Sequence record: PQ435593.1
Source of the DNA: Escherichia phage vB_Eco_K-01
DNA: 45,245 bases
Strand: one strand, 5' to 3'
Shown: positions 4,798 through 5,457 of the stretch, in pieces
How the letters are laid out: each line of letters opens with the position of its first letter
How positions within the stretch are numbered: position 1 is the stretch's first letter
Notes under the pieces: generated by a model
The model's database searches: none
What the model saw: only the letters and a program-made list of their open reading frames with translations
Told to the model about the DNA's origin: nothing
Program-made: the position numbers and the translations under genes

Positions 4798-5087
4798 TTA
4801 TGTCTCCAGATGTATTGTCGTCTCTGCGGCTTCGTCGGGATATCATCGTATCCCAGCGATTTCCAGTAATTAAATAACCGATTAGCGATTGCCGCGTGTT
4901 CCTGTGTTTTGAACTCACCGAGATTAACGGCCTTCCCGTTCTGGAATCCACAGGCGCGGACAGCCTTGCGTCTGGCCTGAATATCCGGGTACAGCGCGTT
5001 ACCGCGGCGCTTGTATATCTGTGTTTTAGCTCTCGGTGACAGCGGCGCAAGGCCGCTTCGTTTCAGGATGTCGGTTGCCAGGCTCAT
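4794..5087 (-). CDS. putative DNA-binding protein (AP2-like segment)
   Basis: Track ORF 4794-5132 trimmed to the ATG at 5087, which overlaps the upstream stop. The segment GKAVNLGEFKTQEHAAIANRLFNYWKSLGY resembles an AP2-type DNA-binding domain. Weak call. Confidence 0.3.
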   Translation of the reverse strand: MSLATDILKRSGLAPLSPRAKTQIYKRRGNALYPDIQARRKAVRACGFQNGKAVNLGEFKTQEHAAIANRLFNYWKSLGYDDIPTKPQRRQYIWRHK

Positions 5088-5263
5088 ATTCCGAGAATCT
5101 CGCGGGCCGTTTCTTCGGTAACTTTCGAACAAGGTGCGTACAATACCTGGTCGGCGAAGTTACGCAGTTTGCGCTCCAGTTCCGCGTAATCTTCGTAGCG
5201 AACCCAATTACCCTCGGCGACCTGAAACATATCGCCATGGTCGTTTTCATATCTCTGCGCCAT
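5084..5263 (-). CDS. small hypothetical protein (paralog A)
   Basis: Internal ATG at 5263 with a GGAGGG ribosome-binding site. Protein begins MAQRYEN...VRYEDYAELERKL, paralogous to the adjacent gene; the DNA shares the 16-mer TCGCGTAATCTTCGTA. Confidence 0.45.
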   Translation of the reverse strand: MAQRYENDHGDMFQVAEGNWVRYEDYAELERKLRNFADQVLYAPCSKVTEETAREILGI

Positions 5264-5457
5264 CACTCCACCCCCTCCACATGTGTAACTGACCCACAGT
5301 TCGCGCACTCAACGTAATCAGGAAACTGGTCCTTGTATTTCTGTAACTCGGCTTCGAGTTTCGCGTAATCTTCGTACTCTATGTATCCACCATCATCGCA
5401 CGGGTTTACCGAGCCACCTTTCTGATGAAACAACTCTAACTCGTATCTCTGTACCAT
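5263..5457 (-). CDS. small hypothetical protein (paralog B, Cys-containing)
   Basis: ATG at 5457 with an AGGAGA ribosome-binding site. Protein begins MVQRYELE...IEYEDYAKLEAEL and carries a C..C / CxxC arrangement (possible zinc ribbon). Confidence 0.45.
   Translation of the reverse strand: MVQRYELELFHQKGGSVNPCDDGGYIEYEDYAKLEAELQKYKDQFPDYVECANCGSVTHVEGVE

Follow-up and report, generated by a model that had tools for sequence, protein, structure and literature searches.

Two small genes, here called A and B, lie next to each other on the minus strand of the window, by which is meant the whole 45,245-nt stretch of Escherichia phage vB_Eco_K-01 DNA that was analysed (PQ435593.1; Table 1). A first-pass annotation had described adjacent, translationally coupled genes whose products begin MAQRYEN and MVQRYELE, and both are indeed found as minus-strand open reading frames. 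The stop codon of B and the start codon of A overlap in the sequence TGATG, with one base in common, and a putative ribosome-binding site lies 10 nt ahead of the ATG of A, so that translation of A is probably coupled to that of B. The junction GGAGGGGGTGGAGTGATG is kept in phages phiEc3 and phiEc4 and in the tandem loci. Gene B starts one base past the stop codon of the upstream 67-aa gene, and the stop codon of A overlaps the ATG of the downstream 97-aa gene in the sequence ATGA (5084-5087). Since the genes overlap or abut and no promoter, terminator or Rfam element was found within the A/B locus, the two would belong to one tightly packed minus-strand operon. A DUF551 gene (6771-6956, minus strand; E 1.3e-15) is placed in the same operon.

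Each protein consists of an N-terminal mini-domain followed by a C-terminal module (C-module), which in B comprises a helix and then ECANCGSVTHVEGVE, and in A a helix-loop-helix (RKLRNFADQVLYAPCSKVTEETAREILGI). B matches phrog_29624 over its full length (E 2.6e-29, profile positions 1-60 of 60) and A matches phrog_37174 (E 2.1e-9, positions 13-68 of 69), with a cross-match of A to the family of B (E 3.8e-6). Pfam searches with A, B and their neighbours gave nothing above the cut-offs.

Table 1. Features of the A/B locus and its flanks (positions in the window).
Feature	Positions	Strand	Description	Basis
Gene B	5263..5457	-	64 aa, slot position 1, MVQRYELE..., MVQRYELELFHQKGGSVNPCDDGGYIEYEDYAKLEAELQKYKDQFPDYVECANCGSVTHVEGVE	ORF
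Gene A	5084..5263	-	59 aa, slot position 2, MAQRYEN..., MAQRYENDHGDMFQVAEGNWVRYEDYAELERKLRNFADQVLYAPCSKVTEETAREILGI	ORF
N-half of gene B	5377..5457	-	MVQRY strand, variable hairpin loop ELELFHQKGGSVNPCDD, GGYIE strand	alignment
N-half of gene A	5198..5263	-	MAQRY strand, variable loop ENDHGDMFQVAE, GNWVR strand	alignment
Gene B motif	5353..5376	-	codons 28-35, YEDYAKLE; includes the 15-mer at 5362-5376	
Gene A motif	5174..5197	-	codons 23-30, YEDYAELE; includes the 15-mer at 5183-5197	
CxxC of gene B	5296..5307	-	C51-A-N-C54, followed by conserved H59	columns invariant or nearly so
GGAGG, putative ribosome-binding site of gene A	5274..5278	-	within the last codons of B (HVEGVE)	sequence reading
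Upstream flank of slot	5459..5662	-	67-aa gene, phrog_3766; conserved	
Downstream flank of slot	4794..5087	-	97-aa gene, phrog_9632; conserved	

BLASTP aligns A and B at 38% identity over 58 columns (E 9e-10). As judged from this alignment the two proteins are homologous, and they are paralogs in the sense of a common N-terminal domain. The similarity is split into islands, namely MxQRYE, YEDYAxLE and a weak C-terminal F.D.V..A.C..VT, and so reaches beyond the short DNA motif that the first-pass annotation had pointed to when it called for a pairwise alignment. Between the first two islands the loops of A and B are unrelated (p 0.7). The similarity of the C-modules is marginal (shuffle p ~0.01), and their ancestry may or may not be common; hhalign assigns the A and B families a probability of 98.9%, a value raised by their shared N-modules and not used for C-module homology.

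At the DNA level the shared segment had been given as 16 nt long. An identical run common to both genes does exist, but it measures 15 nt (CGCGTAATCTTCGTA): only B contains the exact 16-mer TCGCGTAATCTTCGTA (5361-5376), while A reads CCGCG... (5182-5197) and differs at the first base. A longer stretch around the run has 20 of 21 bases identical, and no shared run of 15 nt is expected in shuffled sequences. On the coding strand the 15-mer reads TAC GAA GAT TAC GCG, encoding YEDYA. The gene pair contains the heptamer GATTACG at three places, two of them in B and one in A.

Why should two genes that have diverged elsewhere keep 15 identical bases? Among 43 unique genes of the family the motif DNA occurs in 33 variants, with a nearly saturated synonymous divergence (pS 0.76) and a pN/pS of 0.24. 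Tandem partners match at 17.0 of the 24 motif bases, against 16.7 of 24 for genes from different genomes, and gene conversion is rejected, as motif identity within a genome equals that between genomes. Runs of at least 15 nt occur in about 5% of between-genome combinations of a position-1 with a position-2 gene, and the probability of an identical 15-mer in two family genes that encode YEDYA is 0.225. Heavily diverged synonymous sites, together with the lack of any within-genome excess, indicate that the 15-mer is a constrained peptide written in its commonest codons. An exact scan of IMG/VR returned 36 matches to the 15-mer, mostly on contigs that differ in length from the ~44-kb Kagunavirus genome; the exact DNA word is therefore no marker of the family. 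The C-modules have pN/pS values of 0.21 (B) and 0.36, which argues for purifying selection and hence for real genes.

The N-terminal mini-domain is widely distributed. A merged-family profile, searched against 1.84 billion representative proteins, recovers 827 protein clusters (50% identity) at E<=1e-3 from phages and prophage-like contigs, and most of the distant matches cover only profile positions 1-40. An N-domain HMM built from the distant relatives alone finds B (E 2.6e-15) and A (E 7.5e-12) as its sole two matches in the window. The mini-domain begins within the first five residues in 113 of 117 distant matches, in proteins of 39-297 aa whose C-termini are mutually unrelated (coiled coils, Cys knuckles, DUF551-like tails and others). 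Five distant relatives (P0238, P0242, P0245, P0280 and P0354) carry two copies in one polypeptide, which supports the mini-domain as an autonomous unit. Pfam and NCBIfam searches with 123 distant matches yielded no true family, coiled-coil noise apart. An Ead/Ea22-like identity, considered in view of the lambdoid setting of distant relatives, was ruled out, none of the 123 matching a Pfam family beyond that noise. The distant relatives spread over at least 18 PHROGs, of which 17 are undescribed and one is named "Lar-like restriction alleviation protein".

Distant members are encoded in diverse viral contigs and two bacterial assemblies; the contigs of two of them are only ~1 kb long. A scan of bacteria (one genome per species) with the distant-relative pattern gave two loci, in a Pseudoxanthomonas MAG and in Erwinia endophytica, and the Kagunavirus-type pattern gave no confirmed locus in the same scan. 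With two bacterial loci only, the family appears essentially phage-borne. Searches with tblastn for distant relatives in phage isolates returned few or no matches, all annotated as "hypothetical". In a lambdoid-type contig (L136, 4357-5289) a distant relative lies in a nin-like region between the O/P replication genes and RusA, its neighbours being a DUF551 protein, a NinI-like phosphatase and RusA.

AlphaFold2 models of the two proteins suggest how the conserved residues are arranged. The low-confidence model of B (pLDDT 62) has a hairpin (5-8/16-19), a helix (28-44) and a small hairpin (48-59) around the CxxC; that of A (pLDDT 76) combines a low-confidence hairpin with a helix (23-41), a loop and a second helix (47-57), with residues 31-59 above 90. 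The N-terminal hairpins are modelled at low confidence (pLDDT 53-58). In both models YEDYAxLE forms the strand-to-helix transition, and the mini-domain is predicted to fold as a hairpin followed by a helix. Sequence searches of the PDB with both family profiles found nothing. Foldseek, run with the A model against the PDB and BFVD and with the B model against the PDB, gave no match at E<=1e-3, only generic helical hairpins or members of A's own family.

The cysteines of B had been taken for extra pairs suggesting a zinc ribbon. One knuckle, a CxxC with a following His, survives this reading, the plural does not: B has C20, C51 and C54 and therefore a single CxxC. Across the family only C51, C54 and H59 are conserved, and C20 falls in the variable loop. 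These are three conserved candidate zinc ligands, against the four, from two knuckles, of a zinc ribbon, and B looks like the first half of one; a fourth ligand could come from a partner chain. The complete two-knuckle ribbon of Lar_restr_allev (PF14354) is absent from B, which matches this family at E 0.087 and 13.5 bits, against a gathering cut-off of 28.6. Relatives with a C-terminal extension possess a second CxxC, and the best of them (P0076) reaches E 7.7e-5 and 23.3 bits, again below the cut-off; A has no match to PF14354. The "Lar-like" family phrog_3592 matches B at E 0.018, and the match of one distant relative to that family spans the N-domain and not a ribbon.

The extension that carries the second CxxC in B-type relatives belongs to phrog_6094, which also includes a 146-aa gene upstream of the pair in the window. 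This gene (5659-6099, minus strand) encodes a coiled-coil protein ending in a "QSGCRKED...C.H.W...C..CG" tail, and in P0016 and P0076 B-type proteins carry this tail as a C-terminal fusion (residues 55-96), from which it follows that modules move between neighbouring gene families. A further 58-aa gene (6470-6646, minus strand; phrog_1474) encodes a four-Cys zinc ribbon with a helix and "KCANCGS...VTHKCRKC"; the helix and the first knuckle are common to it and the C-module of B ("ECANCGSVTH"; BLASTP E 2e-4).

Searches with B retrieved 372 protein clusters and searches with A 101, with no Pfam domain among either set; nearly all of them come from contigs some 44 kb long. The proteins follow one pattern, in which an MVQRY start is followed by 10-25 residues, sorted into some 31 mutually unrelated clusters, then by G-x-[WYF]-V-x-YEDYA[KE]LE and a C-module. 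The C-modules are B-type (AELQKYKDQFPDYVECANCGSVTHVEGVE), A-type (RKLRNFADQVLYAPCSKVTEE.A.EILGI) or one of at least five others. N-loops of 17 of the 31 clusters are joined to both A-type and B-type C-modules, in a table biased toward these two modules, as the proteins were retrieved by similarity to A or B.

Where the halves change partners was located in 21 gene pairs with at least 80% DNA identity in the N-half and less than 55% in the C-half. In 20 of the 21 informative pairs the identity collapses within the 24-nt motif or at its edge. Raoultella phage RP180 carries a single gene with an A-like N-half (first 66 nt) and a B-like rest, the switch lying at TACGAAGATTACGCG. Either a preference of recombination for the motif or selection for chimeras that stay in frame and can fold could underlie this clustering of breakpoints. 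Natural in-frame fusions are also found (L086 2701-3039, P0164 and P0244), in which the "FPDYVE" of a B-type gene is joined to the motif and C-module of the next, A-type, gene, the product that would be expected from recombinational deletion between tandem copies. The 20 alleles at least 85% identical to A (P0121-P0141) differ mainly at residues 15-22, the second hairpin strand that directly precedes the motif, and, in the last helix, at residue 54 (R/C/M). The varied hairpin loops may tolerate change neutrally and owe nothing to diversifying selection.

The 2.4 kb around the locus match coliphages of the genus Kagunavirus (Guernseyvirinae), vB_EcoS-phiEc3 and phiEc4 being closest (95-98% identity); the window, by its length, represents a complete Kagunavirus genome. 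In phiEc4 the locus stands among about a dozen small hypothetical genes that run from a divergent intergenic region into the holin and endolysin genes. The B protein is identical in both phages, and phiEc3 has it without A. Gene A is a precise cassette of 177 nt, from start codon to start codon, that is missing from phiEc3.

How many family genes does such a site hold? Presence and copy number in related phages, a check that the first-pass annotation had proposed, were surveyed in 50 IMG/VR loci drawn through the conserved upstream 67-aa gene, a sampling unbiased toward the A/B family, and their open reading frames were scanned with the family HMMs. Between the 67-aa and the 97-aa genes lie no family genes in 18 loci, one in 20 and two in 12, and never more than two; the window genome has exactly two, by both the family HMMs and the N-domain HMM. 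Position 1 is usually B-type, and the last codons of the gene there contain the ribosome-binding site of whichever gene comes next. Position 2 is taken by an A-type gene, by one with another C-module or occasionally by an unrelated gene. In each of the 12 tandem pairs examined, one N-loop differs from the other. Small unrelated genes, or a B remnant shortened to 41 aa, are also seen in the slot of some relatives (L087 2843-3136, L078 2701-3012 and L111 2650-2996); with such unrelated genes, the site takes foreign cassettes too.

The surroundings of the slot vary as well. The downstream 97-aa gene has a form of 121-127 aa in some relatives (L091-L104), in which only the C-terminal "VVNLGEF...LW..RGY..IP" is common and the N-half is replaced. 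Just downstream of the slot lies a gene for an HslV-like peptidase (4357-4797, minus strand), which is annotated in phiEc3; the annotation of phiEc4 has a gap of ~380 nt at this site, and presence of the gene seems to vary.

Taken together, the observations are probably best explained by a modular family of accessory genes that occupies one cassette slot and exchanges its halves at the motif. A and B would both belong to a family of small accessory proteins that phages can do without, and would be encoded in a small-gene operon upstream of the lysis genes. Their mini-domain, of some 35-40 residues, would be built from a strand (MVxRY), a variable hairpin loop, a second strand (GxWVx) and the start of a helix (YEDYAxLE), followed by an interchangeable C-module, a helical hairpin in A and a helix with one CxxC/His putative zinc knuckle in B. 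The 15 identical bases would be the codons of YEDYA, the most conserved residues of the mini-domain, and the motif would mark the boundary at which N-halves and C-halves were exchanged among related phages. Whole genes would be gained and lost as start-codon-to-start-codon cassettes, leaving zero, one or two in a slot. Because zero-copy genomes exist, A and B are probably dispensable. It is possible that the constant mini-domain with its variable loop, on the one side, and the swappable C-module, on the other, provide separate binding or effector activities. Because of the accessory, nin-region-like setting, A and B might tentatively be regarded as adaptors for host interaction or anti-defence.

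The pair had been attributed to a local duplication followed by divergence, that is, to a recent tandem duplication of one small gene with the copies diverging in place. The genes are adjacent and apparently coupled, they are significantly similar and they share the 15-nt run, all of which speaks for a duplication. Outside the motif, however, their DNA has diverged, the loops are unrelated and the C-modules only marginally similar, and nothing points to homogenisation within the genome. Both gene types occur in the same order in many Kagunavirus genomes; the closest relative of each gene is found in other genomes, not next door, and each half has closer kin elsewhere, both in other genomes and at the other position of the slot. 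Moreover, the N-domain is joined to hundreds of unrelated C-termini, the slot holds zero to two copies and the 177-nt cassette of A has no counterpart in phiEc3. A recent duplication is thus distinctly unlikely and the original description too simple, since the halves recombine independently, the closest relatives lie in other genomes and the copy number varies; an ancient duplication may still have founded the two-slot layout. The apparent coupling, the amphipathic helix that follows the motif in both proteins and the loops that always differ within tandem pairs could also suggest an obligate two-component pair, either a heterodimer formed through the shared helix or a couple of the toxin/antidote kind. 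Such a partnership is very unlikely given that 20 of the 32 occupied slots hold one gene, that position 2 accepts several unrelated C-modules or unrelated genes, and that phiEc3 keeps an identical B without A.

Two further readings concern the parts rather than the pair. B could be a Lar-type zinc-ribbon protein for restriction alleviation and the locus an anti-restriction module, as the weak but repeated matches to PF14354, the "Lar-like" phrog_3592 match and the position among accessory genes would suggest. Every score nevertheless stays under the Pfam cut-off, B offers a single CxxC, a distant relative matches phrog_3592 through the N-domain and not a ribbon, and the structural searches gave no match. 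The mechanism of Lar is itself not known, so the similarity would offer little functional leverage, and the reading is unlikely. As for the shared 15-20 nt, the clustering of module switch points at the motif, the three copies of GATTACG and the natural fusions that join there might hint that the segment functions as a nucleic acid in its own right, for instance as a dedicated site of recombination, in regulation or as an RNA motif. Against this stand the saturated synonymous sites and the many DNA variants of the motif, tandem partners that are no more alike than random pairs, and the lack of any Rfam match, promoter or terminator, which make a nucleic-acid element extremely improbable.

If the modular reading of A and B holds, an odd identity of 15 bases is accounted for by a conserved protein motif, which is at the same time the border between modules in a cassette slot whose copy number varies. 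The A/B pair alone is ordinary phage mosaicism. What goes beyond this is the undescribed, compact N-terminal domain, found in the 827 protein clusters and without an entry in Pfam or NCBIfam. Many anti-defence and host-takeover functions come from small, dispensable and rapidly reshuffled proteins of early operons, which makes the family a reasonable candidate set for screens, and the natural chimeras mark exact points for experimental domain swaps. A bolder and rather doubtful proposal is that MVxRY...GxWVxYEDYAxLE represents an undescribed, widespread recognition domain of small phage proteins, with a loop diversified in an arms race against host targets or defences and a plug-and-play joint, the slot serving as a two-barrel cassette for anti-defence or host takeover. 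If this were true, the conserved motif would let phages recombine recognition loops with different effector modules.

Among described families, the closest are phrog_29624 and phrog_37174, both of "unknown function", to which B and A belong by direct HMM membership; the two split one N-terminal domain according to its different C-modules and offer no functional or structural description. The literature searched on Kagunavirus hypervariability, Lar restriction alleviation and Guernseyvirinae mosaicism contained nothing about the A/B locus. Lar (PF14354; Lar of the Rac prophage) resembles B in being a small phage accessory protein whose first CxxCG knuckle is similar to "ECANCGS", and extended relatives of B with a second knuckle score higher. 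B itself, however, has no second knuckle and stays below the cut-off, the N-terminal mini-domain is foreign to Lar, and gene A lacks any Cys-rich module.

A hypervariable peptide segment within a constant scaffold also recalls the targets of diversity-generating retroelements. Unlike these, the A/B variants vary in length as well as at every base, and represent discrete alleles common to several genomes. With no reverse transcriptase in the annotation (75 genes) of phiEc4, a near-identical phage, and with alleles that are shared, discrete and variable in length, a retroelement target gene was ruled out.

The adhesins of T-even tail fibres swap modules when the conserved motifs on either side of their variable segments recombine. 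The A/B family is similar in that its variable segments lie between short conserved motifs, which are also the places where natural chimeras change over. The adhesins, however, are large structural receptor-binding proteins of known function, whereas A and B are non-structural proteins of 59-64 aa. The nin region of lambdoid phages is a mosaic accessory region with small dispensable genes in variable number, and lambdoid mosaics in general arise by exchange where genes adjoin or where a short stretch is conserved. In such a setting, distant N-domain relatives lie near O/P, DUF551, a NinI-like phosphatase and RusA, and the A/B operon likewise contains DUF551. In contrast to the lambdoid nin region, A and B reside in a virulent siphovirus (Kagunavirus), and exchange takes place not only at gene boundaries but also within the genes, where two domains meet.
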